This document shows, piece after piece, positions 6,825-32,000 of a stretch of DNA of 32,000 nt. The number at the start of each line of letters is the position of its first letter. The first letter of the stretch is position 1. The notes beneath the pieces are model-generated. The model did not search any database. It had not been told where the DNA came from and worked only from the letters and a program-made list of their open reading frames with translations. The translations under genes were made by a program, and so were the position numbers. The stretch is from Chlamydiota bacterium (GTDB lineage Bacteria > Auribacterota > JACPWU01). The stretch lies in assembly GCA_016196885.1 (NCBI GenBank), contig JACPWU010000025.1, positions 1 to 32,000 on the forward strand, read 5' to 3'.

Positions 6825-7107
6825 CTTTCCTTCATACTGTGAGAAACATGGAATATAATCTTTAAAAGGTTTTTCGCCTCACAGTACTAGCCCACATTTA
6901 AACTTTAATTTAAGGAATAGCTTAGCAAGGTGGTACATCTTACCATGGTTTTGGTAAAGAGCAAGGGTGGAAAATATATCAAAAATCAAAATGCAAATAT
7001 CAAAATGACAAATCAAAATGTAAAAATTCTTCACTTTAAAGCCAAGAGGGTTTCTTTTTGATATTTGCATTGTCATTTTAATTTTTGCTATGAAAGTCGG
7101 GCTCATT

Positions 7108-7179
7108 TTGTAGTCGCCCCATTTATGGGGCTGCCGTGTGCCCCTTGCATGGATTGCCCGATGAATCGGGCGACTACAA
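7108..7179. repeat. REP-doublet (REPIN-like) palindromic element, copy A
   Basis: GTAGTCGCCCCATTTATGGGGC ... GCCCGATGAATCGGGCGACTAC. It consists of two inverted GTAG-headed hairpins with a 23-bp spacer. The same family occurs at 15403, 19081 and 28641. Confidence 0.8.
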
Positions 7180-7270
7180 AAAAAGCATGATGGGAAGAAC
7201 TTTCATCACACACGATGATCTCGAAAGATCATTAAAATTGATATTTTCACATGGAGGCTTATGCCGGGGC

Positions 7271-8482
7271 TTATGCCAAAAATCGAGAGGCCGAGATTCG
7301 ATAAACGTTTTTGCTCTCTAGTTTGCAAATATTTTCTTCTCTGCAAATTTGAACCAGAGGGATGTGATGGAGGGCCTCTTGGGTTTTGTAATGGTGGCGG
7401 GGAATGATCCCATCTGATAGTTTGGTTTCAATGAGAAGCCAGGGTTCTTTGTTTTTAACAATGAGAAAATCGGTTTCTTCTTGCTGTCTATTTCGGATGT
7501 AGAATAACTCGAAAGAGTGCTCGCTTGATTCTGTCCATAAGGATGTTTGTGACAAAAGCTCAACGGCAACGTAATTCTCAAACCGTTTGCCGGGATCTTG
7601 AATGTGCGTCCAGTCGTAAAGATAACATTTGGGGGCCTTCAGAAGGGAGCGCTTGATGTTTTTGGTATAAGGATGGATTTTGAAAGCCAGAAAAAAGTCC
7701 TCCAATCGGCGGAGATAATTTTTAACAGTCGGATGGCTTAGTTCCAGGTGTGAGGCGAGTGAGGACTCCGAAAGAGGACTCCCTGCCATTTCGGGAAGAA
7801 GAAGGTATAGGTCGTACAAGTATTCTTTGTCTATGATTCTGGTGAGAGTTCCGATGTCTTCTTTCAAGACGGTGTCCATGTAATCTTCAGACCATTTGGA
7901 TAAAAATACTTTGGATCCCTTTAGAAAAGGCTCTGGGAAGCCTCCGTATTCAATGAGGGAATCGAGCGTTTCTCGAGCGTTCGGATGGGTATCCATTTTT
8001 TTTTGGATGAAGTCTTGAACTCCCTTGGGTGTCGAGAGAGATTTTTTAGAAGAATGGAATTCAGAAATGGAGAGGGGAAAGAGATGAAATGTGAAGTATC
8101 TTCCTGAGAGGCTGTCTCCCGCCCGTTTGAAAATGTCGAGTTTTACAGATCCTGTTACAATGAAATGGTAGTGGTCGGACAGACTGTCAAAAATCGCTTT
8201 TAGGGCGTTTTTCCATTTCGGGATTTTATGGATTTCGTCGAAGCAAACCCATTGTTTATGAGAACGGGGAGGCCGATCTTCCGTCAAGAAAAGCTGATTT
8301 TCCTTGTATCGGTTTCGGACCGAGCGCAAATCCCATAAATAATACAAAGCCTCTGTTTTAGCTTCTTTGAGTTTAAGCTTAGCCAGAGTGGTCTTCCCGC
8401 ATTGGCGAGGACCTGTGATGAATCTCATTTGTCTCCCCCAGGTCTCAGAGAAGGCGAGTGTAGATAAGGTACGTTCCAGCAT
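7271..8482 (-). CDS. AAA+ ATPase with a DUF4143-type C-terminal domain (COG1373-like)
   Basis: 403 aa with Walker A GPRQCGKTTLAK and Walker B-like VCFDEIHK. The overall layout matches the ATPase_AAA_14 plus DUF4143 family. Confidence 0.8.
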   Translation of the reverse strand: MLERTLSTLAFSETWGRQMRFITGPRQCGKTTLAKLKLKEAKTEALYYLWDLRSVRNRYKENQLFLTEDRPPRSHKQWVCFDEIHKIPKWKNALKAIFDSLSDHYHFIVTGSVKLDIFKRAGDSLSGRYFTFHLFPLSISEFHSSKKSLSTPKGVQDFIQKKMDTHPNARETLDSLIEYGGFPEPFLKGSKVFLSKWSEDYMDTVLKEDIGTLTRIIDKEYLYDLYLLLPEMAGSPLSESSLASHLELSHPTVKNYLRRLEDFFLAFKIHPYTKNIKRSLLKAPKCYLYDWTHIQDPGKRFENYVAVELLSQTSLWTESSEHSFELFYIRNRQQEETDFLIVKNKEPWLLIETKLSDGIIPRHHYKTQEALHHIPLVQICREENICKLESKNVYRISASRFLA

Positions 8483-11733: not shown

Positions 11734-12162
11734 ATGAAGCCTCTCCGGATTGTGATGGATACCAACGTTCTCATTTCCGCTTTACGATCTAATCAAGGGG
11801 CCTCTTTTCAGTTGCTTCGGCGGGTTGATTGTCAGAAATTTCAACTTTGCCTTTCGGTGCCGCTTGTTTTGGAGTATGAGGCATCGGCAAAAGAGATTGT
11901 TTTGGAGACGGCGTTAACGAGGCGTGATATAGATGATGTGATAGATTATGTTTGTACTGTGGCAGAGCCGGTGAAAATATACTTTTTATGGAGGCCTGTT
12001 CTGCGTGATCCAAAGGATGATATGGTTTTGGAGTTGGCTGTCACAGCGGGTTGTGACGCGATTGTAACATTCAATAAATCGGATTTTTTAGAGGCTGTTC
12101 AGTTTAGAATTAAGATTTTAACACCAAAAGAATTGCTGGAAAAAATAGGAGAGCTTCCATGA
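11734..12162 (+). CDS. PIN-domain toxin (VapC-like)
   Basis: 142 aa with the N-terminal acidic motif IVMDTNVLISAL, and later acidic residues (DD, PKDDMVLE, ...DAIVTFN) in PIN-like spacing. Confidence 0.75.
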   Translation: MKPLRIVMDTNVLISALRSNQGASFQLLRRVDCQKFQLCLSVPLVLEYEASAKEIVLETALTRRDIDDVIDYVCTVAEPVKIYFLWRPVLRDPKDDMVLELAVTAGCDAIVTFNKSDFLEAVQFRIKILTPKELLEKIGELP

Positions 12163-15356: not shown

Positions 15357-15370
15357 AAAAATTCAATATA

Positions 15371-15496
15371 CCTATGCACTTGACTTTAGCTGTCGTACAT
15401 TTGTAGTCGCCCCATTCATGGGGCAATGCGTGGATTGCCCGATAAATCGGGCGACTACGCTTAACGAATTAAGGTACTTAAAGTAAAGTGCATAGG
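15371..15496. mobile_element. MITE-like element carrying a REP doublet (copy B)
   Basis: TIRs are TATGCACTTGACTTTAG and CTTAAAGTAAAGTGCATAG. The core at 15403-15458 is GTAGTCGCCCCATTCATGGGGC...GCCCGATAAATCGGGCGACTAC. No transposase is present. Confidence 0.7.
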
Positions 15497-15508
15497 CATA
15501 AAATTTAA

Positions 15509-17121: not shown

Positions 17122-18054
17122 TTGGCGCGGTTGAATAAATCTCTTCTCATCCGATGGATTGTAGGCATTGGTCTTATTGTCTATCTTTTTACCCTTATTA
17201 ATTTTCATGAATTTTCTGAAATTCTTTCCAAGGCTTCTTTACCTTTTTTCTTTTTGGCGGTGCTTTTGGTCTTGGTGGATCGCGTTTGGATGGGCTCGAA
17301 ATGGAACATTTTATTAAAGGTTCAAGGATTAAACGTTTCTATGTTTGAATGCGTTCGCGTTTATTTTATCAGTTCTTTTTTAGGGTTGGTTTTGCCGACC
17401 AGCGTGGGGGGCGATTTGGTTCGTTTGTTCAGTCTCTCTGTGGAAAAGGGGGAACGGGAAAAAGTAGCGGCTTCGCTGGTGGTGGAAAAACTTCTTTCCA
17501 TGATGGCGCTTCTTCTTTTGGTTATTTTTTGCGTTTTACTCCTGGTGATGACGTCGGCCATGACGGGCTGGCGTTATTTCTTGATGGCCTTGGGTGTATT
17601 TCTAGGCATGGGACTCATTTTTGTGATTTCTCTTCTTTTTTTACCTGTCGAGCGGCTTCGAAAAGCGGAAGGAAAATGGCTGAAGAAAATAGCGCGTGTA
17701 TTTTTGGCCTATCATGAATTTAGGCGTTATCACAGAGCTATGTTTGTTTTTTTTATTGTTTCTGTTTTTGAGCAGTGCATGCCTTTTTTATTTAATTATT
17801 CCTTGGCCAAGGCCTTTCATTTGCCGGGGAGTGCGCTTACTTATTTTATGATTGTCCCAATGATCTATATGATTGCTAGACTCCCTATTTCGGTAGACGG
17901 AATGGGCATTGCCGAGGCCCTTTTTGTTTTTCTATTTCCTTTGATGGGTCTCGATAAAACGCATTCTTTGCTTCTCGCCTTAGCAGGCCGATTGGCCACT
18001 ACTTTAGGCCATTTGATTGGTGGAATTTTTTATTTTTGGAAGAAAAAATCATGA
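17122..18054 (+). CDS. UPF0104 / lysyl-PG-synthase-TM-like (flippase-like) integral membrane protein
   Basis: 310 aa with about 8 hydrophobic segments and the motif SSFLGLVLPTSVGGDLVR. TTG start. This family is commonly paired with a GT2 gene. Confidence 0.7.
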   Translation: MARLNKSLLIRWIVGIGLIVYLFTLINFHEFSEILSKASLPFFFLAVLLVLVDRVWMGSKWNILLKVQGLNVSMFECVRVYFISSFLGLVLPTSVGGDLVRLFSLSVEKGEREKVAASLVVEKLLSMMALLLLVIFCVLLLVMTSAMTGWRYFLMALGVFLGMGLIFVISLLFLPVERLRKAEGKWLKKIARVFLAYHEFRRYHRAMFVFFIVSVFEQCMPFLFNYSLAKAFHLPGSALTYFMIVPMIYMIARLPISVDGMGIAEALFVFLFPLMGLDKTHSLLLALAGRLATTLGHLIGGIFYFWKKKS

Positions 18055-18860: not shown

Positions 18861-19188
18861 TTAGCCCGCATTTCTCATCAGATTTCGTTGCGAGGAACGC
18901 CTGAGTCTGCCTTGGATGCGAGGAAGACGACTGAGGCCATGTGAGGCATACTTTACAGCATGTTGAGCGTGGCCGACCGAGTCTGTACGGAGAGACGAGG
19001 CGGAATCGGAGAAGAGCAGCAGAAATGTGATGAGAAACAAACATGACTTTCAGTCACAAAGGGGGATGAAAATCACCCTTGTAGTCGCCCCATTTATGGG
19101 GCTGCCCGATGAATCGGGCGACTACAAGTCATCATAACTTATTGTATAAGAATAACTAAAGACTATTTTCAGATGAAATGCGGGCTAA
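18861..19188. repeat. Non-coding segment of about 330 bp bounded by inverted repeats, with a REP doublet inside
   Basis: TTAGCCCGCATTTCTCATC (18861-18879) is inverted relative to GATGAAATGCGGGCTAA (19172-19188). The interior is GC-richer than its surroundings and contains the direct repeat TGCGAGGAA-n-CTGAG twice. Confidence 0.4.
19081..19125. repeat. REP-doublet (REPIN-like) element, copy C (minimal form)
   Basis: GTAGTCGCCCCATTTATGGGGCTGCCCGATGAATCGGGCGACTAC. Confidence 0.8.
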
Positions 19189-19244
19189 TATATCACCTGT
19201 GCTAATATGGCTCCCATTATTTAACCTTGGAAAGGTAATAAACC

Positions 19245-20198
19245 TTGATGTCAAGTTCTTCTCCTGAGTTGTCCATTATTATTCCTCTGATGAATGAAGA
19301 GGAAAATATTCCTGAACTGATTCCTCGGGTTTGCGAGGCTTTGAATACTCTAGCCCGGTCTTACGAAGTTATCTTGATAGATGATGGGAGCACGGATCGG
19401 ACATGGGAACTTCTAAAAAAGGTCCGGGGAGAGGATGAAAGGATTCGCCTCATTCGATTTCGAAAAAATTTTGGTCAGACGGCCGCATTGAAAGCAGGGT
19501 TTGATGCGAGTCGGGGCAAGGTGATTGTCACCTTGGATGGGGATTTGCAAAATGATCCGCGTGACATTGGAAAGTTGTTGGGTGCTCTGGAAGAAGGATA
19601 CGATATCGTGAGCGGTTGGCGTTATCCCCGCCAGGATCCCTTCTTGAGCCGAAGGCTTCCTTCTATCATAGCCAATGGTGTCATTTCTCTGACCACCCAG
19701 GTAAAGCTGCATGATTATGGATGTACGCTGAAGGCCTTCAGGGCGGAGGTGGCCAAAAATTTGGATCTCTACGGTGAAATGCACCGCTTCATTCCAGCCA
19801 TTGCGAGTTGGATGGGGGTGACCGTGGCTGAGGTGAAGGTGAGTCATCAGGCTCGGAAAAGGGGGAAGTCGAAATACGGAATTTCTCGGACTTTGAAAGT
19901 TCTTCTGGATCTGATCACGGTCAAATTTCTTTTGAGTTATTCCACCAAGCCCATTCAGATTTTTGGATTGATGGGGCTTCTCACCGGAGGGGCGGGCTTT
20001 CTTCTTTCCATTTATTTAGCCTTTGTGAGGCTCTTTCTTCATCATCCCATTGGGGGAAGACCTCTCTTGCTGTTGTCGGTACTTTTAATATTTATTGGGA
20101 TTCAATTTATTACCATGGGGCTTTTGGCAGAAATCCAAATTCGGACCTATCATGAGTCTCAGAAAAAATCAATCTATGTGATTAAGGAGGAGATTTAA
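19245..20198 (+). CDS. Membrane-anchored GT2 polyprenyl-phosphate glycosyltransferase (ArnC/GtrB/CsbB-like)
   Basis: 317 aa with LSIIIPLMNEEENI, IDDGSTDRT and LDGDLQNDP, plus two C-terminal TM helices. The start is either TTG 19245 or ATG 19248. Confidence 0.85.
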   Translation: MMSSSSPELSIIIPLMNEEENIPELIPRVCEALNTLARSYEVILIDDGSTDRTWELLKKVRGEDERIRLIRFRKNFGQTAALKAGFDASRGKVIVTLDGDLQNDPRDIGKLLGALEEGYDIVSGWRYPRQDPFLSRRLPSIIANGVISLTTQVKLHDYGCTLKAFRAEVAKNLDLYGEMHRFIPAIASWMGVTVAEVKVSHQARKRGKSKYGISRTLKVLLDLITVKFLLSYSTKPIQIFGLMGLLTGGAGFLLSIYLAFVRLFLHHPIGGRPLLLLSVLLIFIGIQFITMGLLAEIQIRTYHESQKKSIYVIKEEI

Positions 20199-20200
20199 GT

Positions 20201-21844
20201 ATGAAAAGAAGGTTTCACGGAATTATTTTAGGTATTGGGATTTTGATGATGTTTGCAATCAATGGGCACTGTGAAGCAGTTCACCCTTGGGCGGTTTGGT
20301 CGGCTTCTGACGGAAATGATTTAGAAATTTATGCCTCACATGAGGGAGATAGTTCTTGGAATGTTCCCGAAAAAATTCATTCGGATAATGCTGTTTCTGA
20401 TACCTCTCCTGCCATTGTAATTGATTCCACAGGTAAGGCTTTTGTTGCTTGGGTAAGAGAAAATGGAGATAAAGAGGAAATTTATTGTTCGAGATGGGAT
20501 GGTTTACGTTGGTCTTTGGAAGAGCCTGTGGGTGTTCTTCAGGGTGTGCGATTTTCTGTGCCAGCTGTGACGGTAGATGACAAAGGAAATCCTTGGATTG
20601 TCGCTTCGGGTGTGAAAAATAATGGTCAGGACGAAATTTATGAAACACATCGTACTGTGACGGGTTGGACAGCGTGGATGCGTGTGAATCAAGAGGATGC
20701 ATCTCCAGATGTGGACCCCACCGTGATGGCTTATCAAGATCAAGTTTGGGTCATTTGGAGTGGGTATGATGGTGAGAATTATCAACTTTTCGGAAGACAT
20801 TCCAATGGGAAAAGCTGGACTCAAGAGGAAAAGCTTTTTCAAGGGGGAGGATTTTCGCAGAGTTTTCCTTCTCTAAGCGTTGAAGGTGGGAAATTCAAGC
20901 TTTCTTTTTACAAAAGCGATGAAGGGATGTTTAGCTTTTGGGATGGCCAGAATTGGTCTTTTCCTTCTTCTGCTACATTTTCGCTAGAAGAAAACTTGAT
21001 TAACATTTGGAAATCTCAAGCTGTTTATAAAGGTCAGACCGCTTGGTTTGAGGGTCCAGAAAATAGAGGTGCTTTTAATATTTTACTTAAATCGGATGAG
21101 GCTAAAACTTCTACAAAATGGGTTGCTCGTTTGAAGAAGCTTTTTGATATATCAGGAAATGAAGCTTGGGCGGCCACTGCAAATGTTTACACTGCTTTTG
21201 GAGACAGTATTACAGAAGGAGGATATCCTCCTTTTTTACAAAATCGCTTGAGTGGGGCGACGGTTGTAAACAGGGGGAGAGGAGGAGAGCTTACGGACGG
21301 TGGTTTGAGCCGAATTGGGGGTGTTTTGGCGGCTGATAGTCCTGAGTTCATTCTGATTATGGAAGGAACCAATGACGCTGGGAATGAGCATTCTCAGGAA
21401 TCGATTGCTTTTAATTTGGAACAGATGGTTGCCAAAGCAGCAGCTACAGGGACCAAACCCATCCTTTCAACCATTACTCCTCGTAAGGACAACCACAATG
21501 GAAAAGTGGAAAAGGTGAATGCCCTGCTTCGAGAGTTTGCGGGCTCTAACGGAGTTCCCTTAACAGACAATTATGCGGTGATTATTGCCAAACCCATTGC
21601 TGAATTTGATAGTTTGTACACGGATCATCTTCATTTCAATAGTGCTGGAAATGACATCATTGCCCAAGACTTTTTTGACACGATTAACAGTGTTAAAGGG
21701 GGTGGCAGCGGCGGTGGCGGTGGGTGCGGTTCTGTGAAACCCAATTTTCCTTCGAAATGGAATTTGAATTTGGAACCTTTGTTGTTCTCCATTTTTGTTT
21801 TCTTAATTTTGAGAAAAATGAGAAGAGTTTCTAAAGCCCGTTGA
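20201..21844 (+). CDS. Secreted protein: five-fold repeat (propeller-like) N-domain, SGNH/GDSL hydrolase, and a Gly-rich/Cys/TM/basic C-terminal tail
   Basis: It has a signal peptide (ILGIGILMMFAINGHCEA) and about 5 repeats of roughly 50 aa with the pattern W..W....G..EIY......W. SGNH blocks are FGDSITEGG, GTNDA and DHLHFN. The tail reads GGGSGGGGGCGS...LEPLLFSIFVFLILRKMRRVSKAR. Strong AAGGAGG RBS. Confidence 0.8.
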   Translation: MKRRFHGIILGIGILMMFAINGHCEAVHPWAVWSASDGNDLEIYASHEGDSSWNVPEKIHSDNAVSDTSPAIVIDSTGKAFVAWVRENGDKEEIYCSRWDGLRWSLEEPVGVLQGVRFSVPAVTVDDKGNPWIVASGVKNNGQDEIYETHRTVTGWTAWMRVNQEDASPDVDPTVMAYQDQVWVIWSGYDGENYQLFGRHSNGKSWTQEEKLFQGGGFSQSFPSLSVEGGKFKLSFYKSDEGMFSFWDGQNWSFPSSATFSLEENLINIWKSQAVYKGQTAWFEGPENRGAFNILLKSDEAKTSTKWVARLKKLFDISGNEAWAATANVYTAFGDSITEGGYPPFLQNRLSGATVVNRGRGGELTDGGLSRIGGVLAADSPEFILIMEGTNDAGNEHSQESIAFNLEQMVAKAAATGTKPILSTITPRKDNHNGKVEKVNALLREFAGSNGVPLTDNYAVIIAKPIAEFDSLYTDHLHFNSAGNDIIAQDFFDTINSVKGGGSGGGGGCGSVKPNFPSKWNLNLEPLLFSIFVFLILRKMRRVSKAR

Positions 21845-24774
21845 AAACGTTTGTTTGGCTTGCAGTGATCATTCTCTTGGGGATGATCCTGAGGACTTTT
21901 TATTTGGTCACCCCTACAGTGGATTCAGATCAAGCTGTTTTTGGTCTGATGGCCATGCATATTTTAAAAGGGGAGTTTCCACTTATTCAATGGGGTTTCC
22001 CTTACATGTCTTCGGGGGAATCCTTTTTTGCAGCCCCCTTTTTTTATTTTCTGGGGGCTTCTCCTTTTACGCTCGACTTAGCTATCGCCATTGAATCTTT
22101 GATTTTTGTCTGGCTCATTTTTTTTGTGGGCCGAAGAATCGGAGGCTCTCAAATGGGGCTTCTCTCGGCCCTTTACGTGGCGATCCCCCCTTCCTATCTC
22201 GCCATTCATTGTGTTTTGGCTCGAGGGGCCTACATTGAGACGCTGATTTTGGGGACCCTTGCCTTTTGGATGGCCCTTCGCATTTTTTATCCAGAGGGCG
22301 GGAAAGACCGGGGACCTCTTTCTTATTTTTTGCTGGGCACCGCTTTTGGCCTGGGCCTTTGGTTTCATTTTCTGATTATCTTTTTCATGGTACCCATTGG
22401 CTTTTTTTTTCTCATCAAGCCCAAAACACTTTTCAGAAAAGAGATCTCACTCTTAGTTTTAGGATTTCTTTTAGGAAGTCTTCCGTTTTGGGTCCACAAT
22501 TTTTATCACGGCTTCGAAGGCATTGCCTATCTTTCCAGGCATGAAAAGAGGCATCACACTTTTTGGCAGGGGTTGTCCCAATATGTGGGAAGGGATCTTT
22601 GCATTATCTTAGGCATGTTTCGCGATCATATTCAAACCGCCTTGACTTGGGTGAATGTCCCCTTCATTATTTTGTACGCGGCTTTTTTAGTTTATGGTTG
22701 GGGCCAATGGCTGAAATCCTTTTTTCACAAAGAGCCTTTGAAGGGGATTGGGCTTGTGCTTATTTTTCTTCTTTTTTATATCTTGATCGTGGATGAAAGT
22801 GAGTACATCGAGAAAGATACACGAAGATATTATGTCCCCCTTTTCGCGGGGCTCCCCCTTCTTTGGGCTTGGGTGGTTCAATCCTGGTCAAGGCGGTCTC
22901 GAGTTCTCAAAATTTCTCTCGTCAGTGCCTTCCTGTTTTTTCATCTCTTCACGAATTTCCGAGAAGCGGCTGTCTTCCATCCGGATTCGTTCAAACCTTA
23001 TCAGGAAAAGGTTCGCAAGGAAAAAGAACTGATTCATTTCTTAGAAGAGAAAAATCTTCGCCAAATTAATTACGAAGATTATTGGCTGGGATTTCGATTG
23101 AATTTCATAGCACAAGAAAAAATCATTTTTGCTCGAACATTCTACGAGCGCTATCGTCCCTATGAAGATATTTTGGAGCGCTCAGATCATCCTGTCTTTC
23201 TGGATGGGGCCAGCCAAAAATTTGGCCCCCTTTTCAAAATCATCGGGGGGAGTTGCGAGGAAAATCGTGTGGGAGATTGGAGTGTGTATCATGATTTTGT
23301 GGAGCCACAAGGTCGTTATCGTCAAGTCAATCTTCAGAATGCTCACGTTTCTGCCTCTGACCGGACAGAGGAGGCAAAATATGTTTTGGATCGTGATGCG
23401 GAAACCGCATGGACGAGTGGACGGCCTCGCTCGCCTGGGATGTGGGTCCAAATAGACCTGGGAAGGACCTATTCTCTGGGCCTCCTGCGGCTTTGGGATC
23501 GTCCTCATCATTTTCGGGATACGGCGCTTCAAGTGAGTGTTCAAGTGAGTTTGAATGGCGAGGAATGGAAAGAGGTCATTCCTCCGACACGGGGAGATTT
23601 TTATTATTGGAATGGCCCCAGAATTTACGGTTGGGAATTGGGCTATCGCTCGGAGGCGCGCCTTGGCCCTGTTCAGGCGCGGTTTATTCGTATCACTGGG
23701 CACGAGGCTGATTCTCAGCATCCTTGGATGATCTATGAAATTTTTGTCTATGAGCATGTGGGGGAGGAGAGGAATGTTAAGGATCAACCTCGGGTCATTC
23801 AGGCGATTCAAGAATTGAAATTAGAAAAAGTCTACGCCGATCGCTGGCTGAGCTCTAAAATCAAGGAAGACACCCAGGGAAAGGTTCAAACGGTGGAGCC
23901 TTTTAGCTATCCCCACTTCTATGGGGAGATGCCAAGCCGCCTCATCGAATGGGGCCCTCATGTAGGCTTTGCAGTGGAAGATGCGGACGCGGAGCAATTT
24001 GAAAAGGAGGCCCAGCAAGAAGGTTTCAACCTCTCTCGTCGAGATTGTGGAAGGTGGAGTCTTTTTTATTTTTCCCATTGGGGTGGAGAAGAGGAGGAAA
24101 TGGGAAAGGTCCCCAGTTTTTGGTGGACGGGTTTTGGAATTCTTAAAACCAATAGAAAGTTGAGGAGCGAGTATTTGGGCATAAGAGCTAGAAAATATGC
24201 GGAGAAAGGGGATTGGGCCTCTGCTCTGCGATATGATGAAAAAGCCTTGGAACGTTATTCCAACCATCAAGGGGTTCGGTGGGAATTGATTCAAGTTTTG
24301 GAAAAGCTAGGTCGGCTTGACGAGGCTCAAGAACAATTGGAAGAATTAAAATGGCAAACGGAACCTCGGGAGAAAATGCCCATTCTCTTTGAAAAGGGAG
24401 TCGAATTTTTGGGATTCTCGATCGAGTCTCATGAGGCCCATACGGGTCAGACGCTTCCTATTTATTATTATTGGAGATTGAATCAAGATCCAGGATCCGG
24501 GATGGGTGTTTTTGTTCATCTGAAAGGCCCGGGCCCTTTGATTCAAGGGGATCATAAATTTTTGGATCGTAACATGAAAGTGTGGCCGGCCCTGGAGGGG
24601 GAGATTTTTTATGAGGAAGAGCTTTTAAAAATTCCAGAAGTCACGCCTCCGGGACAGTACGAAATTTGGTTGGGTTTATTCGATTTGGGAACCGAGAGGC
24701 GCTGGAAGGTCAAGAAGACGGAGCTGAAAGAGAATCAAGGGGCTGTTTTTGTGGGAAGAATCCAGGTAAAATGA
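21841..24774 (+). CDS. GT-C fold (ArnT/PMT-like, GT39/83-type) membrane glycosyltransferase fused to a discoidin (F5/8 type C) domain and TPR-like repeats
   Basis: 977 aa. The N-terminal ~400 aa are polytopic, with an acidic first-loop motif (VDSDQAVFG). The segment at about 23327-23760 (DAETAWTSG...WVQIDLG...RFIRITG) is discoidin-like, and a TPR-like segment sits at about 24196-24350. The TTG start overlaps the previous stop (TTGA). Confidence 0.75.
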   Translation: MKTFVWLAVIILLGMILRTFYLVTPTVDSDQAVFGLMAMHILKGEFPLIQWGFPYMSSGESFFAAPFFYFLGASPFTLDLAIAIESLIFVWLIFFVGRRIGGSQMGLLSALYVAIPPSYLAIHCVLARGAYIETLILGTLAFWMALRIFYPEGGKDRGPLSYFLLGTAFGLGLWFHFLIIFFMVPIGFFFLIKPKTLFRKEISLLVLGFLLGSLPFWVHNFYHGFEGIAYLSRHEKRHHTFWQGLSQYVGRDLCIILGMFRDHIQTALTWVNVPFIILYAAFLVYGWGQWLKSFFHKEPLKGIGLVLIFLLFYILIVDESEYIEKDTRRYYVPLFAGLPLLWAWVVQSWSRRSRVLKISLVSAFLFFHLFTNFREAAVFHPDSFKPYQEKVRKEKELIHFLEEKNLRQINYEDYWLGFRLNFIAQEKIIFARTFYERYRPYEDILERSDHPVFLDGASQKFGPLFKIIGGSCEENRVGDWSVYHDFVEPQGRYRQVNLQNAHVSASDRTEEAKYVLDRDAETAWTSGRPRSPGMWVQIDLGRTYSLGLLRLWDRPHHFRDTALQVSVQVSLNGEEWKEVIPPTRGDFYYWNGPRIYGWELGYRSEARLGPVQARFIRITGHEADSQHPWMIYEIFVYEHVGEERNVKDQPRVIQAIQELKLEKVYADRWLSSKIKEDTQGKVQTVEPFSYPHFYGEMPSRLIEWGPHVGFAVEDADAEQFEKEAQQEGFNLSRRDCGRWSLFYFSHWGGEEEEMGKVPSFWWTGFGILKTNRKLRSEYLGIRARKYAEKGDWASALRYDEKALERYSNHQGVRWELIQVLEKLGRLDEAQEQLEELKWQTEPREKMPILFEKGVEFLGFSIESHEAHTGQTLPIYYYWRLNQDPGSGMGVFVHLKGPGPLIQGDHKFLDRNMKVWPALEGEIFYEEELLKIPEVTPPGQYEIWLGLFDLGTERRWKVKKTELKENQGAVFVGRIQVK

Positions 24775-24781
24775 AACATCC

Positions 24782-27496
24782 ATGACCAAAGCCAATTCAG
24801 GTCCATCTTCTTTCAAATCTTTTCTGTCGGACAGTTTTTATGTTCTGACACTCTTTTTTCTTCCTTTCATCCGATACGGAAAAATGATGGCTTCCTGTCT
24901 TGCGGGTCCGTTATTTTCAACAGCAGACATGAGTGGCATCCATTCCAACCAGCTCTTCTTTTTTGAAAATTTAAAGAGAGGAATCCTATCCCTCTGGAAT
25001 TCCCATGTCTCTTCAGGATTTCCCATTTTTGGAGATATTCAAAATGCCCTTTTTTATCCGCTTCAGGGTCTTTTTTTCCTATTGATGAAACAAGGCGTGT
25101 TGAAACTTCATGCAATGCAAATGATGGAAATTTTTCATTACTCCTTGGCCGGAATTTTTTCTTATGTTTGCGCTCGCTCTTTCAAATGGAGTCGTTTCGC
25201 CTCATTTGTTACAGGTCTTTCCTACATGTTCTCAGGTTTCTTGTGGGCCCATGGAGCTCAGGCAAATACGGTAGAGGCTGCTGCTTGGCTGCCTCTGATT
25301 TTTATGTGTATGCATCAAGCATTCGAGAAAAAAAGTTTTGGTCACGCCCTCGCTTGTGGTTTCGCATGGGCCCTTTCCTTCCTGGCGGGGGATTCCCAAG
25401 GTACCTTTTGTGTTTTTTTCTTTCTGGGGCTTTATTTTATTTTTCAGTGCGTTTGGGAAATAGGAGACCGTGGATTTTCAATGAGGATTCTTTCATATCC
25501 TTTCCTTTTTGGCCTTGTAGGATTGACCTTTATGGGTGTTGCAGCCATTCAGCTCTTACCCTCTCTTGAATGGGCGAGGAGGGCCTCACCCCTTTCGCTT
25601 CCTTTTTCGAACCTCACGGCGCTTTCTCTGAAACCCCGTTATTTCCTCAGTTTTCTCATTCCCTTTTTTGTCCCGGATGGGGAAATAGGATTAAAGGAGG
25701 GATACGTCTATTTGGGGCTTTTGCCGCCTTATTTTGCCTTTGCTTCTCTTCTGTATGTCAAAAAGGAAAGAAAAATCCTTTTTCTTGCCCTGATGGCTCT
25801 TTTGTCTTTTTTCTTGTCAATGGGGAGCGATAGTTTCATCCATTTTCTTTTCTATCGTTTCATTCCGGGGAGTTCTTTTTTTTCACCTCCTCGATTTATT
25901 TTTCTCTTCAGTTTTTGCGCGGCCCTTCTGGCGGGATGTGGGATAGAATTTCTCATTCGAGAAAAAGGAAGGCTGCCCTTCTTAAGTTTACTTTTAGGGG
26001 GGCTTGGCATCTCTCTAGGAGTAGGGTTCTGGATTCAAATTTCAGGAGGGCCTCTTTCAAGAGGGGATTTGCTGGATCGTTATTATTTATTCCTTCTTGT
26101 TTTGGCGCTTTCCTGTTTGGCCTTAAAAGTTTTTGAGAAGGGAAAATCTTCCCGAGGGAGCCTCTTCTTCCTGACTTTTATTTTGCTCTTTGATTTGTTG
26201 AGTGCGACCTCCTCCTTTCAAAAAACTGAAAGTACTTTGTCTTGTCCCATCTCAAATTCTCACGATTTTTTGCAAGGATCTCGGGGTCTTTTCCGTGTCA
26301 AAGATGAAATCGGACTTTGGAAGCCTCTGAGGGATGAACAGGCTCCTCTCATGGACCGTGTGGAAGGGAATGAGGAGAGTTCTGCACGTTTAGATTTATA
26401 TTCTCGTTTCCTCGCAAAAACCGTTGAGAACGCCCGGCTTCTGGATTTCTTGAACACCCGATTCTGGGTGACGTCAGACGAGCCTATGAATGAGTCCTGG
26501 TCAAAAAAATATCGTCGGGTCAAATTGAGTCGCATTCATTCCAGAAAAGAATTAGAAATTCACTGGCCTCGAGAAAAGGATGTCATAAACTCTATTCAGC
26601 TCGTTTCTTGTTTAGAAAATGCCCAGGACATTCGTCAGGGGACAACCGTTGCTCAATTACAAATAGTAGATCATAAGGGTAAATTCTACACCTTCCCCAT
26701 ACGGGCAGGACTAGAGGCGTCCGAGGGGATGTATGATCGCCCGGATATTTTTTTGAAAATCAAGCACCATCGAACCCTGATTGCCTCTTCCTCAAATGTC
26801 GAGGGAGAAACTTATCAGGCCCATCAGTATCTGGCGCATTTCGATCTTCCGAAACCGATTCGGCCTGTGAGGGCTGTTTTTCATTATCTTGTTGCCGAGG
26901 GTGATTGGATGGTTCAGTCGGTGACGTTGAATGATGTGAATATTTTTGACTCCAAAGATCGTTTCAAGAAAGTGGCCCCTCAAGTTTTTGAAAATCAATA
27001 TGTCCTGCCGCGCGCATTTTTAGTCCCCCGGGCAGAAGTGATTCCGAGTAAAGAAGATATTGAAAAAGAGCTTTGTGATTTAGAACCCTCTGAAACGGTT
27101 CTGCTTTCGAAAGCGCCGCCAGGCTATGTTCCTCTTCCCCTTATTTCTGAAAACTCAAAAAAGACAGAGGTTGAAATTAAGAAGTATTCTCCTGAAGAAA
27201 TTTTGCTTGAAACAGATTGCCTTCGTCAGGTTTTTTTAGTCATAAGCGAGAATTTTTATCCAGGATGGAAAGCGGAAGTAGACGGCCAAAAAGCGGAAAT
27301 TTACCAGGCCAATCTTTCTTTCAGAGCCCTGCTTTTAGAGAAAGGCAAACATACCATTCGAATGGTTTTTCACCCGGCCTCATTTAAGTGGGGATTAAGA
27401 CTTTCTCTGGGCTCTCTTTCTTTTTTAGGGCTTTATGCGATTTTTTCTCTTCTGATGAAGAGACGTTGGGCGTCCCATTTAAAATCCGAGTCCTAA
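24782..27496 (+). CDS. YfhO-family polytopic membrane protein (GT-C-type glycosyltransferase)
   Basis: 904 aa with many N-terminal TM segments, a large extracytoplasmic domain, the C-terminal signature NFYPGWKAEVDGQKAEIYQANLSFRALLLEKGKHTIRMVF and a final TM helix. Confidence 0.75.
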   Translation: MTKANSGPSSFKSFLSDSFYVLTLFFLPFIRYGKMMASCLAGPLFSTADMSGIHSNQLFFFENLKRGILSLWNSHVSSGFPIFGDIQNALFYPLQGLFFLLMKQGVLKLHAMQMMEIFHYSLAGIFSYVCARSFKWSRFASFVTGLSYMFSGFLWAHGAQANTVEAAAWLPLIFMCMHQAFEKKSFGHALACGFAWALSFLAGDSQGTFCVFFFLGLYFIFQCVWEIGDRGFSMRILSYPFLFGLVGLTFMGVAAIQLLPSLEWARRASPLSLPFSNLTALSLKPRYFLSFLIPFFVPDGEIGLKEGYVYLGLLPPYFAFASLLYVKKERKILFLALMALLSFFLSMGSDSFIHFLFYRFIPGSSFFSPPRFIFLFSFCAALLAGCGIEFLIREKGRLPFLSLLLGGLGISLGVGFWIQISGGPLSRGDLLDRYYLFLLVLALSCLALKVFEKGKSSRGSLFFLTFILLFDLLSATSSFQKTESTLSCPISNSHDFLQGSRGLFRVKDEIGLWKPLRDEQAPLMDRVEGNEESSARLDLYSRFLAKTVENARLLDFLNTRFWVTSDEPMNESWSKKYRRVKLSRIHSRKELEIHWPREKDVINSIQLVSCLENAQDIRQGTTVAQLQIVDHKGKFYTFPIRAGLEASEGMYDRPDIFLKIKHHRTLIASSSNVEGETYQAHQYLAHFDLPKPIRPVRAVFHYLVAEGDWMVQSVTLNDVNIFDSKDRFKKVAPQVFENQYVLPRAFLVPRAEVIPSKEDIEKELCDLEPSETVLLSKAPPGYVPLPLISENSKKTEVEIKKYSPEEILLETDCLRQVFLVISENFYPGWKAEVDGQKAEIYQANLSFRALLLEKGKHTIRMVFHPASFKWGLRLSLGSLSFLGLYAIFSLLMKRRWASHLKSES

Positions 27497-28514
27497 TCTT
27501 GCTGCAAATCCCTGTAAAAGGATATTGAGATAGCTCGATAGATTTTACCCATTTGTAATTTTTTGACGGAATTTTGCCTTTTACCCATCGGCCTAAATAA
27601 ATATCAAGAGATTCTATGAGATGGGTGTAAACATGTTTCACTTGTCTTATTTTTTCTCCTGCTGAAATTAAAATACCTATTTCTTGATGTGAATATTTTT
27701 GAAGTAATTTTGATCCTTCTTTTTTTTCTGAGACGCGAAAGTTAGGAAATTCCCAAAGGCCTCCCAAAAGACCTTTCAGAGGTCTCTGATGAATTAAAAT
27801 TTTGTCTTCTTTCCAAATGATGCCTCCCACTGTTTTAATCGCTTTTTGTACAACGCGTTTCATCAGGGGAGGGTAATCAGCTTGGAGCCCTTTTGCAAAG
27901 GCCTGGCAATTTTTTTGGAGAGGACAAATCAGACACTGCGGATTCTGGGGGGTACAGATTGTTGCCCCTAACTCCATCATGGCTTGATTAAAATCTCCCG
28001 CTCTTCCGTGAGCCAAGATTTTTTCCGCCTGTTCTTGAATTTTATCTTTGTCATCTGGGGTGAGAAAAAGTCGTGAAATGACACGTCGAACATTCCCGTC
28101 TACAACAGGTGTGTCTTCATCAAACGCAATGCTGGCAATAGCACTTGCGGTGTAGGGGCCAATCCCTGAAAGTTGAATCAATTCTTGTGCCGATGTGGGA
28201 ATTTTCCCCTGATATTTTTGAACAATTTCTTGTGCCGCCTTGTGAAAGTTTCGTGCTCTTGCGTAATAGCCAAGTCCTTCCCAAAAAGGGAGAATATCAT
28301 CCACTGTGGCCTGAGCCAGTTTTTGAATCGAAGGAAACCTTTTCATCCACCGCTCATAATAAGGAATCACGGTCTGAACTTGCGTTTGCTGAAGCATAAT
28401 CTCCGAGACCCAAATGGCATAAGGATCTTTCGTTCGCCGCCAAGGGAGGTCCCGCTTATGCTGGTCGTACCAGGAAAGAAGAGAGTGTTGGATATTTTGG
28501 GTGTTTTGCGACAT
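27384..28514 (-). CDS. mutY: A/G-specific adenine DNA glycosylase MutY
   Basis: 376 aa with HhH-GPD (LSGIGPYTASAIASIAF), a 4Fe-4S loop (CTPQNPQCLICPLQKNC) and a NUDIX-like C-domain. The last ~36 aa form a Lys/Ser-rich tail that overlaps yfhO. Confidence 0.9.
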   Translation of the reverse strand: MSQNTQNIQHSLLSWYDQHKRDLPWRRTKDPYAIWVSEIMLQQTQVQTVIPYYERWMKRFPSIQKLAQATVDDILPFWEGLGYYARARNFHKAAQEIVQKYQGKIPTSAQELIQLSGIGPYTASAIASIAFDEDTPVVDGNVRRVISRLFLTPDDKDKIQEQAEKILAHGRAGDFNQAMMELGATICTPQNPQCLICPLQKNCQAFAKGLQADYPPLMKRVVQKAIKTVGGIIWKEDKILIHQRPLKGLLGGLWEFPNFRVSEKKEGSKLLQKYSHQEIGILISAGEKIRQVKHVYTHLIESLDIYLGRWVKGKIPSKNYKWVKSIELSQYPFTGICSKIRTRILNGTPNVSSSEEKKSHKALKKKESPEKVLIPT

Positions 28515-28607
28515 TTTTGGACCTCATTCTCACAAATTCATTTCTTTTTAGCTATGAGAAAATATATCTCTTTCTCTAAGAATAGGTTAAGAAAATAATT
28601 TTTTAGG

Positions 28608-28735
28608 TATATGCACTTGACTTAAAGATGTCGTCCATTTGTAGTCGCCCGATTTATCGGGCTATCCACGGATTGCCCCATGAATGGGGCGACTACACTT
28701 AACGGATCAAGGATATTTGAGTCAAGTGCATATGC
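28608..28735. mobile_element. MITE-like element carrying a REP doublet (copy D), with its core inverted relative to copy B
   Basis: TIRs are TATGCACTTGACT and AGTCAAGTGCATA. Sub-terminal flanks are co-oriented with copy B. The 56-bp core (28641-28696) matches the reverse complement of the copy B core at 54/56 positions, against 46/56 in direct orientation. Confidence 0.7.
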
Positions 28736-28802
28736 CTTTAATTTTTTTTGACTTTTTTGACTCGCTTTGTGTCTCTATATTTGTAACAAAGAGAGGGGCT
28801 CC

Positions 28803-31800
28803 ATGAATCATATTAAATACCTTCAAAAAGGGGTTTCTTTAGCCCTTTCTCTTTCCCTTCTTTTTTATGATGTCTCCTTGGGTTCGGCTCAAGAATCCCA
28901 GGGAATGTTGGCGCCTCTTCCTCTGGAAAAGGCCCATTCTGTTGAAAAGCTAAATCTAGATTTGAATCCATCTCTCAAAGAACTTCAAATTCCATCGGAG
29001 TTTGGAGAAGTGATTGAACGTGAGATTATCCCTGATCGGCCTCTTCTTTTTATTATTGAAGACATTCATTGTAATCCAGAGGCGCAAGAAAATATCAAAA
29101 GGATTTTAGAAATATTAGAAAAACAGGTAGAAAAAAAAGAAGGGATGGGTGATGGAGGAAGAATGAGGGAAGAAGGACGCGGGGGGAAGGACGCAAAAGA
29201 ACTTGAGTCGTCTATCGTCCATCGTCCATCCTCTCTTTTTCATGTCTTTTCTGAGGGAGCCGAAGGTCCCATGGAACTGTCTTTTTTTACCGCTTTCCCT
29301 GATAAGGATGCTCTTGCACGAGCTACTGAAAAATTCCTTCAGAAAAGTGACATGGACGGTGTGGAATCTTTTCTGGTGACAGAGGGGCCTGGGAAAACTG
29401 AGGGAGTAGGTGTTGAAGATTTAAAAGCCTATGTCAAAAATGTGGAGTACATGGGAGATTTTCTTGAAGAAAAGGAACTTCAAGAACATGTTTGGCAGAA
29501 TTTGGAAATGGTTTTTAGAAAGTTGAGGGAGAAAATTTATTCTAAGGCGTTAAAATTTTTTTTTGAACAAAAACAAAAATACAGTGACTTTAAAATAGAT
29601 CTCACCACTTATATTCAATCTCTTGAAAAAATATATCAAGAAACCTTTCAAAAAAAGTTTGGAGCTGAGAAGCCGTTTTTGAGGCGCTATCTCAAGCTTA
29701 ACCGCTTAGAGACGCGTCTTGACTCTAGCAGGATTGAACAGGAATATTTGAAGTTTCTTGAAACCTTAGAGAAGAAACTTCCTCAAGAAGAATCTGCTTT
29801 GATTCTTCGTCATGTCCTGGAGCGCAGATTAGGACGTGAAAGCGATCAAGATCATTATACCTTTTTGAGTCGATACGCTCATCTTGTTAAAGGAGCCGAG
29901 ATTCCAAATTTGAAATTGCTCTTCAGACAGATGAAACTTTTGAAAAAGCTTTCGTGGAAAGATCTGGAAGAAGAGATCCATCAAGTTGAAGCGGAGCTGA
30001 CCACGATTTTGACAAAGACAGAACAGGAAAAGAATTTGGTTGCCTTGGAAGGTGATTATGAAATTTTGAAACGAATTATGAGCTTGGAAGGAAAGAGAGA
30101 AGACATCAAAACCGTCTATCGTCACTCGTCGTCCGTAGATCGTACAGAAAACCGTTTCGTCACAGAATTTGTTGCCAAACTCAAAACTTTGTATCTACGA
30201 ACGACGAACGACGAGCAACGAACGACAGCTTTTGAATCCCCCGACTTCGGAGACATTTTTGAAAAGGCAGAAAAATTCTATTCGCAGGTTCTCGACCGCG
30301 ATGAAATTTTTATGAAGAATGCGCTTCATGTTCTTCAAGAGAAAAAGCTTTCTTATGCTGCTTTGGTGATGGGTGGTTTTCATACATCGGGAGTTGAAGA
30401 GACCCTTAAAAAGGCGCATATTGGCTATTGCGTGATTACTCCCCGAATGACTCATTCCGATGACCGAAGTGTTTATTATCAGAAAATGAAGGAAATATTT
30501 GAGGTTCTGGGGGGAATGGATGATGGCCTCAAGAATGCCTCTTTTCCCACACTGAAAAAGATTGCGCTTCATCATTTTATGACTCAAGCTCAGGCGATGG
30601 GCAGAGTGATGATTGAAGAAGCTAGAATTTTGCCCAAAGGTTTCTTTGATGCTTGGGAAAGCAAAGCCCAAGACCTTGCTTCTGTGATCGAAGCATTGGA
30701 AAAAAGCCATCCTGAATCGGCAACCGTTTCAGGAGGTGAGTTTACTCTACAAACCCTTTTAGATCTGACAGAGCTTTCAGCTCCTGAATTAAGAACCCTG
30801 CTTCAAGACAATCAAGTTCGCCCCTTTTTAGAACGTTACATTGAAAATCTTTTGGCGTTCTCCGGGCATGAAGGGAAAGATTGGCGAGTGCTTTTGGGAA
30901 ATGAAGAAGAGCCTCCTCAATTTCCTCCTTCAGGTGGAGGCATTGTAAGTGCGATTAGAAATTCAGGTGCAGGAAACTGGATGGTGCTTTTGGCCCTTTT
31001 ACCTTGGTTGTGGATGACGGCTTGTAAAGGAAATCGAGAGACAAGTTCAACTTCATTAGAACGCGCTCCGCCTGTCGCTTCACCCGTTCAAGCACCTCAG
31101 TCTTTAGAACTTCCGCCTATGCCAGCTTCAGAGCCCTCGGTTTCTCCTGAAAAGGTAGCTCCTGCATTGAATCTTCCGTCCATGCCCACTGAAAGCTCTA
31201 ATCAAACCATTATTCCAAATACCCAAGAGCTAAAAGATAGATTTTGGGCGCAGGAAAATGGGACGCTTCAGCTAAGTGTGGGCGCCGATGGTTGGGTGAC
31301 TTTGACTTATACACTCACAGGCGATTACCTAGGAACCAAAGTATCTATCCCAAGCGCTTTTCGAAACTCAGGTGTGATAGAAGTGGAAATGAAGGGTCCT
31401 GGATCTGTTGAAATTAAGCCGAATGATCAAGGAGGCCCCTTCGTCAGCGAAAACCAAAAACTTCAAGTTAATCCAAACGACTACGGAGGAAGTGTAAGCA
31501 GTCTGACTGTTGGCTTGGTGCAAAGTAAATTAGGAAACAGCAGTGGAACGGTCAAACTTCGCTTTGTTCATCGTCCTTCAGGTGGAGTCATTATTGCTCT
31601 TAAAGAGTGGATGTTAAAATACATCGTCCCCTTAAAATGGGCGCCCTCTTACGACACGCGCATTGCACCTCTCCTGGAAGAATTTCTTTTTGGATTGCCT
31701 CTTGTTGTTGTGAGTTTACTAGGTTTTGACCCTACTTGGGTCCTGGCAGCCAATTTTATTTCCAGATCTCTCTTCTTGCTTCCTCAACACCAAGGAGGGA

Positions 31801-32000
31801 GATGGATTGCAGGTTTAGTGGCTCTTTCGAGTTTTATCTTCACTTCAATTCCCATTTATTTTCATTTGTCGCTGATTGTTTTGCCCGTTGTATGGATGAT
31901 TGCTATTGCAATTCATACGAAAATCAATAAAGGTGACCAACCCAGATTCTTTTCTTCACGATTTTTACGGGCAGAGGCCGTTTTTTCTGCGGCTCTTCTT
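28803..32000 (+). CDS. Large multi-domain exported/membrane protein, 3'-truncated by the window end and not in the supplied ORF track
   Basis: I translated it manually from ATG 28803 (GAGGGG RBS) and found no stop in 1,066 codons through position 32000. It has a signal peptide (VSLALSLSLLFYDVSLGSAQE), an internal TM with a lipobox-like LWMTAC, a Pro-rich linker, and a terminal polytopic region with a PLLEEFLF motif. The track's minus-strand ORFs at 29829-30125 and 30195-30710 are shadows of this frame. Confidence 0.8.
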   Translation, partial: MNHIKYLQKGVSLALSLSLLFYDVSLGSAQESQGMLAPLPLEKAHSVEKLNLDLNPSLKELQIPSEFGEVIEREIIPDRPLLFIIEDIHCNPEAQENIKRILEILEKQVEKKEGMGDGGRMREEGRGGKDAKELESSIVHRPSSLFHVFSEGAEGPMELSFFTAFPDKDALARATEKFLQKSDMDGVESFLVTEGPGKTEGVGVEDLKAYVKNVEYMGDFLEEKELQEHVWQNLEMVFRKLREKIYSKALKFFFEQKQKYSDFKIDLTTYIQSLEKIYQETFQKKFGAEKPFLRRYLKLNRLETRLDSSRIEQEYLKFLETLEKKLPQEESALILRHVLERRLGRESDQDHYTFLSRYAHLVKGAEIPNLKLLFRQMKLLKKLSWKDLEEEIHQVEAELTTILTKTEQEKNLVALEGDYEILKRIMSLEGKREDIKTVYRHSSSVDRTENRFVTEFVAKLKTLYLRTTNDEQRTTAFESPDFGDIFEKAEKFYSQVLDRDEIFMKNALHVLQEKKLSYAALVMGGFHTSGVEETLKKAHIGYCVITPRMTHSDDRSVYYQKMKEIFEVLGGMDDGLKNASFPTLKKIALHHFMTQAQAMGRVMIEEARILPKGFFDAWESKAQDLASVIEALEKSHPESATVSGGEFTLQTLLDLTELSAPELRTLLQDNQVRPFLERYIENLLAFSGHEGKDWRVLLGNEEEPPQFPPSGGGIVSAIRNSGAGNWMVLLALLPWLWMTACKGNRETSSTSLERAPPVASPVQAPQSLELPPMPASEPSVSPEKVAPALNLPSMPTESSNQTIIPNTQELKDRFWAQENGTLQLSVGADGWVTLTYTLTGDYLGTKVSIPSAFRNSGVIEVEMKGPGSVEIKPNDQGGPFVSENQKLQVNPNDYGGSVSSLTVGLVQSKLGNSSGTVKLRFVHRPSGGVIIALKEWMLKYIVPLKWAPSYDTRIAPLLEEFLFGLPLVVVSLLGFDPTWVLAANFISRSLFLLPQHQGGRWIAGLVALSSFIFTSIPIYFHLSLIVLPVVWMIAIAIHTKINKGDQPRFFSSRFLRAEAVFSAALL
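29144..29235 (+). repeat. Intragenic palindrome built from 7-nt tandem repeats (site 1)
   Basis: Left array: GATGGGT GATGGAG GAAGAAT GAGGGAA GAAGGAC GCGGGGG GAAGGAC GCAAAAG. Right array: TCGTCTA TCGTCCA TCGTCCA TCCTCTC, which is the reverse-complement type of the left units. It encodes the low-complexity loop GMGDGGRMREEGRGGKDAKELESSIVHRPSS. Confidence 0.7.
30113..30227 (+). repeat. Intragenic palindrome built from 7-nt tandem repeats (site 2)
   Basis: Left array: CGTCTAT CGTCACT CGTCGTC CGTAGAT CGTACAG (30113-30147). Right array: ATCTACG AACGACG AACGACG AGCAACG AACGACA (30193-30227). The arms are mutually complementary, and the first unit CGTCTAT is shared with site 1. Confidence 0.7.

Follow-up and report, generated by a model that had tools for sequence, protein, structure and literature searches.

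The window analyzed here comprises positions 1 to 32,000 of the forward strand of contig JACPWU010000025.1, from a Chlamydiota bacterium of the GTDB lineage Auribacterota (assembly GCA_016196885.1), and an open reading frame (ORF) that begins at position 28803 on its plus strand runs off its end. The frame forms the 5′ part of a gene that is real and whose full product is a multi-pass membrane protein of 2,542 residues from an uncultured bacterium of the PVC group; NCBI labels the closest paralogs "Chlamydiae bacterium". The N-terminal module of the protein (residues 62–566), hereafter called the head, defines a very large unannotated module family found mainly in Omnitrophota, and is conserved and, judging from its invariant residues, apparently catalytic. 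Considering the evidence as a whole, we find it reasonably probable that this giant gene encodes an exported hydrolase head of the TIKI type on a membrane-anchored scaffold of enzymes. The length of the protein, the very large and mainly Omnitrophota family of the head, and an internal repeat of a beta-rich plus transmembrane (TM) unit all lie beyond what a first-pass annotation, made from the letters of the window alone, had seen.

Re-translation of positions 28803–32000 yielded 1,066 sense codons and zero stops, as the first-pass annotation had read; its guess that the frame was missing from the accompanying ORF list for lack of a closing stop codon was also right, the list omitting frames that run off the source. 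With the base composition of the window, a stop-free run has a chance probability of 8e-28 over 1,066 codons and of 3e-65 over 2,542. The closest in-frame stop on the 5′ side is a TGA at 28758, and the only in-frame start besides ATG 28803 is TTG 28767. The GAGGGG of the Shine–Dalgarno-like sequence occupies positions 28793–28798 and thus lies 4 nt before the ATG, not 6 nt as first noted. The GC content at third codon positions (GC3) is similar to that of the neighboring mutY.

Extension of the contig, which had been suggested as a check, located the stop codon. A look-up of the neighboring MutY protein led to NCBI contig JACOUD010000066.1 (GCA_016178005.1), which is identical to window positions 19189–32000 and on which the frame stays open for 2,516 codons, up to the contig end. 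A 2,542-residue database protein, encoded on a 36,470-nt contig, is identical across all 2,516 residues and adds a tail of 26 residues; therefore, the complete gene comprises 7,629 nt, equivalent to window positions 28803–36431, with its stop at 36429–36431, outside the window. Two paralogs, P0014 (3,150 residues) and P0013 (2,304 residues), terminate 26 residues past the equivalent point, an agreement that speaks against assembly error as the reason for the open frame. The concern about such errors voiced at the outset is therefore answered in favor of a real frame, by the identical second contig as well as by the collinear ends of the paralogs.

At one end of JACOUD010000066.1, positions 17164–17441 (window 18911–19188) differ from the window at 212 of 278 nt, the other 12.8 kb being identical; this divergent end is a contig-end misjoin or an alternative assembly path. 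Two antisense ORFs inside the giant gene, at 29829–30125 (minus strand, 98 residues) and 30195–30710 (minus strand, 171 residues), are most likely shadow frames of the conserved plus-strand coding sequence.

A first homology search returned only nine relatives, which align over their N-terminal 430–660 residues and share the motifs of the head. In an alignment of 155 modules, Asp87, His89, Glu151, Arg499, and His527 are invariant (155/155), as are Gly203, Gly524, Gly525, Pro547, and Tyr558. Overall identity among the modules is about 20%, and the conservation of the first five residues despite this divergence is the signature of a conserved active site. The landmarks in the sequence are IIEDIHCN and SEGAEG within residues 62–216 and FY..LDRD and GGFHTSG within residues 486–566, and both motifs quoted in the first-pass annotation, LLFIIEDIHCNPEAQ (residues 81–95) and LVMGGFHTSGVEETL (residues 521–535), are present. 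Residues 486–566 run from a helix with FY..RD..N through a strand, GGFHT, a helix, and another strand to Pro547 and Tyr558.

These motifs had been said to recall weakly the Tiki/TraB/ChaN/erythromycin esterase superfamily, and that link has gained support. In the published TIKI set, RRSP contains Glu3900-x-His3902; a Glu follows the His by 28 residues (His85/Glu113 in Bcr135, His3902/Glu3930 in RRSP); and the conserved Arg4001 of RRSP is followed 29 residues on by His4030 (PMC6254334). The head displays an acidic-x-His first motif, in an Asp variant (155/155), a Glu exactly 28 residues after the His in 129 of 155 modules, and a basic residue, Arg499, followed by a GxxH motif with His527, the Arg-to-His spacing being exactly 28 in 136 of 155 modules, the query protein included. 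The His-to-Glu spacing in the query protein is 62, due to a lineage-specific insertion at residues ~105–145 within the N-terminal half of the core. PF04187 (ChaN) is the sole Pfam family matched by more than two relatives; it matches 3 of the 10 full modules searched (best E 2e-6) as well as 10 of 23 cores from which the insert had been deleted (best E 1.8e-4). The C-terminal half of the core was compared, using hhalign, with a TraB/GumN profile of 10 sequences (Escherichia coli YbaP and plasmid-borne homologs), which gave a P value of 1.2e-4 and a probability of 54%. The score of 26.9 compares with 10.0 ± 2.0 for 60 column shuffles (z ~8.6) and 13.5 for the reversed profile, and the alignment pairs RD with RN and GGFH with GAlH. 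We consider it likely that the head is a member of the TIKI superfamily, in which it would form a new, insertion-bearing family whose first Glu is replaced by Asp.

An AlphaFold2 (AF2) model of the module (554 residues, 10-sequence alignment, pLDDT 80, pTM 0.71) consists, in order, of a strand, a strand ending in Asp-x-His (model residues 42–48), a helix, a strand ending in Glu, and the helical insert, and then of a C-terminal part in which a helix carrying the Arg is followed by a strand and GGFH, a helix, and a strand. The acidic and His residues each mark the C-terminal end of a strand; Arg499 belongs to the helix preceding the last motif strand. In this model, the order of secondary structure elements is compatible with that expected for the TIKI fold. 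Among known systems, the TIKI superfamily (TraB/PrgY/GumN PF01963, ChaN PF04187, erythromycin esterases, Tiki1/2, and MARTX RRSP) is the closest to the head. They have in common the four motif elements with their spacing, the predicted location of acidic and His residues at strand ends, and a C-terminal half detectably similar to TraB/GumN, and the head is placed behind a signal or anchor, as ChaN, TraB, and Tiki are. In contrast to known TIKI proteins, the two halves of the head are separated by ~270 (250–350) helical residues, the gap in RRSP being 71 residues, and the head always leads very long multidomain chains; furthermore, no family model reaches threshold on it. Weak calmodulin-like PDB matches of the whole-module profile, located in the helical insert (E 1.5e-3), were regarded as compositional.

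The size of the family became apparent when the profile of the initial alignment was scored against 1.84 billion representative proteins, with 9,924 clusters reaching E ≤ 1e-3 and 6,874 of them E ≤ 1e-30; the best 150 matches span the profile from end to end. Among 156 sequences examined for position and leader, the module is N-terminal in every one (156/156, median start at residue 41, one per protein), and a hydrophobic stretch precedes it in 132. The lengths of these proteins are 375–7,806 residues, many of them being cut by contig ends. Scanning the GTDB species representatives with a DNA pattern for IQDAHCN[YF]EAQ revealed at least 120 loci; among the matches listed, nearly all are from Candidatus Omnitrophota, and a few are labeled Planctomycetia, Auribacterota, or PVC group. 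Named head-bearing proteins also occur in "Chlamydiae bacterium" and Elusimicrobia metagenome-assembled genomes (MAGs), with several paralogs per MAG. No Pfam or NCBIfam model matches the head in the query, and the papers found on giant genes of Omnitrophota mention no TIKI/ChaN-like head.

The bodies behind the head are variable and contain ordinary metabolic or glycan enzymes with membrane helices interspersed. PGM/PMM domains were found in 7 of 14 Omnitrophota-type members, together with PGK, PGI, transaldolase, ROK, SIS, and hexapeptide transferase domains as further cargo in these 14; FBP aldolase/phosphatase and DUF89 phosphatase are also among the cargo of relatives. One 3,811-residue protein from a "Chlamydiae bacterium" MAG (P0020) contains the head, a malate synthase (residues 1143–1509), and an isocitrate lyase (residues 2294–2644), so that both enzymes of the glyoxylate shunt are fused behind a signal-like leader. 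In another (P0001, 1,420 residues), the C-terminal third behind the head displays, by eye, a P-loop, DGANGSGKTT, and a Hint/intein-like CVTADTMLP ... TTANHPYL.

Very long proteins from Omnitrophota with a signal peptide and TM helices have been described as "multi-enzyme metabolic clusters" (Nielsen and Lui 2026 preprint), with C39, S8, or SecA-like N-terminal parts (Nielsen and Lui 2026; West-Roberts et al. 2023 preprints). The head-bearing proteins resemble them in having a signal peptide, interspersed membrane helices, and enzymes of sugar metabolism along the chain, as well as in their high sequence diversity, many paralogs, and taxonomic home; PGM/PMM and ROK are among the enzymes common to the Omnitrophota catalog and the head family. 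Judging from hydropathy, the AF2 model, the GH162-like domain described below, and the enzymes of its relatives, the query protein likewise combines a signal, membrane helices, and an enzyme domain. It differs from the cataloged giants in length, 2,542 residues versus cutoffs of 10 or 30 kaa, and the head-bearing members examined reach 7,806 residues.

The segments behind the head follow the order given in the first-pass annotation: a hydrophobic helix (residues 725–741), a Pro-rich linker, a beta-rich part (residues 812–925), and further helices (residues 953–1076). For residues 712–741, there are two readings, a transmembrane helix and the remnant of a lipoprotein signal. The resemblance to the latter is in sequence only, the WMTAC being internal, whereas the Cys of a lipoprotein directly follows an N-terminal signal helix. 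P0013, P0018, and the distant P0005 have a similar segment with a Pro-rich tether, which P0014 lacks. With the head exported, the WMTAC Cys would face the cytoplasm, so that a fused lipoprotein gene may have left this segment behind.

Residues 756–1049 are repeated at 1848–2130 with 46% identity (E 5e-74), the second copy of the four-helix membrane module being located at residues 1997–2133; P0014 has two copies of the beta+TM or TM unit, and P0013 has three. The GGVIxxLKxW junction motif is invariant and precedes every membrane module. The module itself has an invariant Glu where its first helix begins and an invariant HxxxN in its last helix, and an Asn, an Arg, and a His are invariant as well. 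In a low-confidence model of the beta+TM unit with a pLDDT of 59, the beta part resembles small jelly-roll/cupin barrels (Foldseek target-normalized TM score ~0.5, E ~1e-4); the sequence of the beta module has no visible HxH motif and no cupin metal motif. Foldseek matches of the same model to GGCX were discarded, given an rmsd of 18–20 Å on a model of such pLDDT. A word-indexed search of 5.8 billion proteins revealed no homolog of the beta+TM segment, and a profile search there returned three proteins.

Beyond the window, residues ~1180–1490 show weak similarity to a fungal GH162 endo-beta-1,2-glucanase (PDB 6IMW, E 8.9e-5; 6IMU, E 1.4e-4), aligning ~310 residues with chain residues 122–447. 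A precomputed match to PF26157 supports this domain; a Pfam search with the extended protein gave none. Compared with the GH162 enzyme, the putative domain is embedded between membrane modules. Cyclic beta-1,2-glucan synthase is a large membrane glucan enzyme with which the protein may also be compared. The GH162-like domain is followed by a beta-rich stretch (beta sandwich), a Ser/Pro-rich linker, the second beta+TM unit, and a conserved 400-residue tail that shares 88% identity with that of P0014 and has no detectable relatives in the PDB. The features that lie within the window are listed in Table 1.

Table 1. Features of the giant gene and its product within the window
Feature	Position	Strand	Basis
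Shine–Dalgarno-like purine-rich GAGAGGGG	28791..28798	+	Read from sequence; 4 nt before ATG 28803
First 1,066 codons (42%) of the 2,542-codon gene	28803..32000	+	Translation, identical contig, identical database protein
Leader, residues 1–29, Sec-signal-like (K5, K9; hydrophobic residues 10–26; GSA/Q, putative cut at the slash)	28803..28889	+	By eye, hydropathy; signal peptide also called by the first-pass annotation
Residues 62–216, N-terminal half of TIKI-like core, beta-beta-alpha-beta	28986..29450	+	Alignment, AF2 model, conservation
Asp87-Ile-His89, proposed equivalent of TIKI Glu-x-His	29061..29069	+	Asp and His invariant (155/155)
Glu151 (SEGAEG), proposed catalytic Glu, invariant	29253..29255	+	Alignment of 155 modules
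Residues 217–485, Lys/Glu-rich all-helical insertion splitting the core	29451..30257	+	AF2: helices only, pLDDT mostly 85–95
Residues 486–566, C-terminal half of TIKI-like core	30258..30500	+	hhalign against TraB/GumN profile
Arg499, invariant, proposed equivalent of conserved TIKI basic residue	30297..30299	+	Alignment
Gly524-Gly-Phe-His527, second GxxH motif, His invariant, 28 after Arg499	30372..30383	+	Alignment
Residues 567–711, helical linker common to closest paralogs only	30501..30935	+	Paralog comparison
Residues 712–741, GGGIVSAIR and hydrophobic helix (725–741) ending in lipobox-like WMTAC	30936..31025	+	Hydropathy, paralogs
Residues 752–811, Pro/Ser-rich linker, 13 Pro in 756–811	31056..31235	+	Composition
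Residues 812–925, beta module copy 1 (copy 2, residues 1886–2010, outside window)	31236..31577	+	Internal repeat, low-confidence model
Residues 926–1045, GGVIxxLKxW/YDT, then four-helix membrane module copy 1	31578..31937	+	Repeat, hydropathy, model
Residues 1055–1066, start of hydrophobic helix 1055–1076 running off the window	31965..32000	+	Hydropathy

From these features, we propose the following role. The Sec-type leader would export the head to the outer face of the cytoplasmic membrane, where a His–Glu pair would activate water to cut an ester or peptide bond, in an active site whose two half-sites are separated by the ~270-residue helical insertion. The remaining chain, with helix 725–741, the two beta + four-helix units, the GH162-like domain, the beta sandwich, and the 400-residue tail, would tether the head, forming a scaffold whose enzyme domains could lie on either face of the membrane or on both. 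In the query protein, a glucan of the envelope or surface would be the probable target. Most likely, the protein acts as an enzyme scaffold, anchored in the membrane, that remodels glycan and protein of the envelope or surface.

Several observations weigh against this proposal. As to the fold, the first acidic residue is Asp rather than the Glu of TIKI proteins; hhalign detects no similarity between the N-terminal half and the TraB/GumN profile and gives the whole core a probability of only 10%, and a comparison with YbaP alone was not significant. The scored PF04187 matches remain below threshold (24.5 bits in P0009, against a gathering threshold of 27.7), and the query protein, as 1,066 or 2,516/2,542 residues, has no Pfam or NCBIfam match, in keeping with the initial opinion that no characterized family fits it. 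Searches of these sequences against Pfam, NCBIfam, and PDB sequences returned only noise, such as Alfin and bMERB. PDB sequence searches with the family profile gave nothing relevant and, with the insert removed, only Naa15 noise. A Foldseek search with the 554-residue module model brought up no TIKI structure in the 50 hits shown (E ≤ 10); these were ASKHA-like and helical matches of low probability. A possible reason is that 270 helical residues split the core. As to topology and function, export was judged by eye; were all hydrophobic stretches to cross the membrane, its two sides would each hold one of the homologous beta+TM units; we infer the link between the head and its cargo enzymes; and all sequences come from metagenome bins.

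An unlikely alternative is that the protein is a polyprotein of fused genes, cut after membrane insertion, with the head as maturation protease and the four-helix modules as proteases of the CPBP/Rce1 type; the cuts would free enzymes on either side of the membrane. The TIKI superfamily does include peptidases, such as Tiki and RRSP (PMC6254334), and self-cleavage has been raised for giant Omnitrophota proteins with other N-terminal peptidases (West-Roberts et al. 2023 preprint). The internal lipoprotein-signal-like segment with its Pro-rich tether, which recurs in the three relatives named above, resembles the beginning of a formerly independent lipoprotein, and the invariant GGVIxxLKxW junction ahead of every membrane module would also suit a fusion. 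CPBP/Rce1 proteins have the motifs EExxxR, FxxxH, and HxxxN in successive helices. The membrane module is similar by eye in that it has four helices, the first starting with a Glu and the last containing HxxxN, and a His after Phe-x3-4; in contrast, it has LE[ET]xLF, in which the Arg of EExxxR is absent. Searches of Pfam and PDB sequences gave no match to PF02517 or Rce1 at E ≤ 10, so that the CPBP/Rce1 idea failed on profiles and the module is left unassigned; its best Pfam match is GtrII (2.5e-4), in two nearly identical copies. Furthermore, a periplasmic head would leave the lipobox Cys on the cytoplasmic side.

A related idea, to which we give somewhat less credence, is that the head serves fused-operon proteins of Omnitrophota and related PVC bacteria as a shared maturation protease or membrane-insertion handle. 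The membrane helices would then include surviving old signal peptides, with the lipobox-like internal segment as an example of such a scar, and the chains would be threaded through the membrane and then cut or held by the head.

We regard as similarly doubtful a non-catalytic head, either a ChaN-like domain that binds a ligand (heme or cofactor) or a structural anchor or export domain. The only Pfam family matched is indeed ChaN, a heme-binding lipoprotein, the large helical insertion could serve as an interaction surface, and PMT has a TIKI fold without activity (PMC6254334). However, inactive TIKI-fold members such as PMT lack the 2His/2Glu set (PMC6254334), whereas the five residues of the head are invariant in all modules at ~20% identity.

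It is improbable that the head is the N-terminal trafficking domain of a delivered effector, which would carry variable cargo into a host or prey in the manner of a polymorphic toxin. The combination of a conserved head, a highly variable body, and several paralogs per genome would fit, as would the host-dependent or predatory lifestyle that Omnitrophota are thought to have, and MARTX toxins carry a TIKI-fold effector (PMC6254334). Yet the cargo is housekeeping (PGM, PGK, isocitrate lyase, malate synthase) rather than toxic, and several clusters of membrane helices suit retention rather than release. In the gene content of the window, nothing beside the giant gene suggests a secretion system or a mobile element, and no immunity-like small ORF was seen downstream, in the 39 nt of contig past the stop. 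An artifact, that is, a chimeric assembly or a decaying pseudogene whose frame is open by chance or through consensus errors, is hardly credible: although the bins are from short reads and the divergent end of JACOUD010000066.1 shows that contig ends can be unreliable, homologs align along the entire head and paralogs at both termini, the catalytic set is intact, and the chance probabilities, the exact agreement of two deposited contigs across the gene, and the mutY-like GC3 all speak against it.

The giant gene is divergent from mutY (27384–28514, minus strand). On its upstream side, the plus strand carries a series of envelope-glycan genes, with hexapeptide transferase, GFO/epimerase fusion, GT4, LPG-synthase-TM, two GT2, GDSL, PMT_2/discoidin/TPR, and YfhO products. 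The first 12 kb encode a 2-hydroxyacid dehydrogenase, APS kinase, PLP enzyme, Fic, BipA, AAA_14 ATPase, epimerase, AsnB, and PIN. Among these housekeeping genes, the Fic/DOC ORF (4541–4969, plus strand), the AAA_14/DUF4143 ATPase (7271–8482, minus strand), and the PIN_3 ORF (11734–12162, plus strand) may be toxin–antitoxin or defense-type genes. The yfhO-like ORF (24782–27496, plus strand) and mutY overlap at their convergent 3′ ends by 113 nt as listed (27384–27496).

A REP/MITE-like palindrome occurs in three intergenic copies in the 32 kb, at 28593–28749, ~15370–15500, and ~7095–7185, with the core TTTGTAGTCGCCC[GC]ATT[TC]AT[CG]GGGC ... GCCC[CG]AT[GA]AAT[GC]GGGCGACTACA. The first of these lies in the spacer between mutY and the giant gene, contains nested inverted repeats, and has no match above noise in Rfam; promoter and terminator scans of this 288-nt spacer gave background levels.

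The description of very long Omnitrophota proteins is recent (Nielsen and Lui 2026; West-Roberts et al. 2023 preprints), and the present gene is probably an insertion-bearing variant in a known enzyme superfamily, joined to this class. For annotation, it illustrates how the most unusual genes at contig ends go unseen in ORF tracks that list only frames closed by a stop codon. The head, a conserved and apparently catalytic N-terminal module on about 10,000 sequence clusters of long proteins, would offer a simple marker with which such genes can be found and classified, truncated contigs included. With ~500 residues and five obvious positions, it is also a tractable target that could show whether the chains are processed. 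Should the head prove to be a maturation protease or insertion handle, it would be both a diagnostic marker of and an experimental handle on the giant-protein phenomenon.

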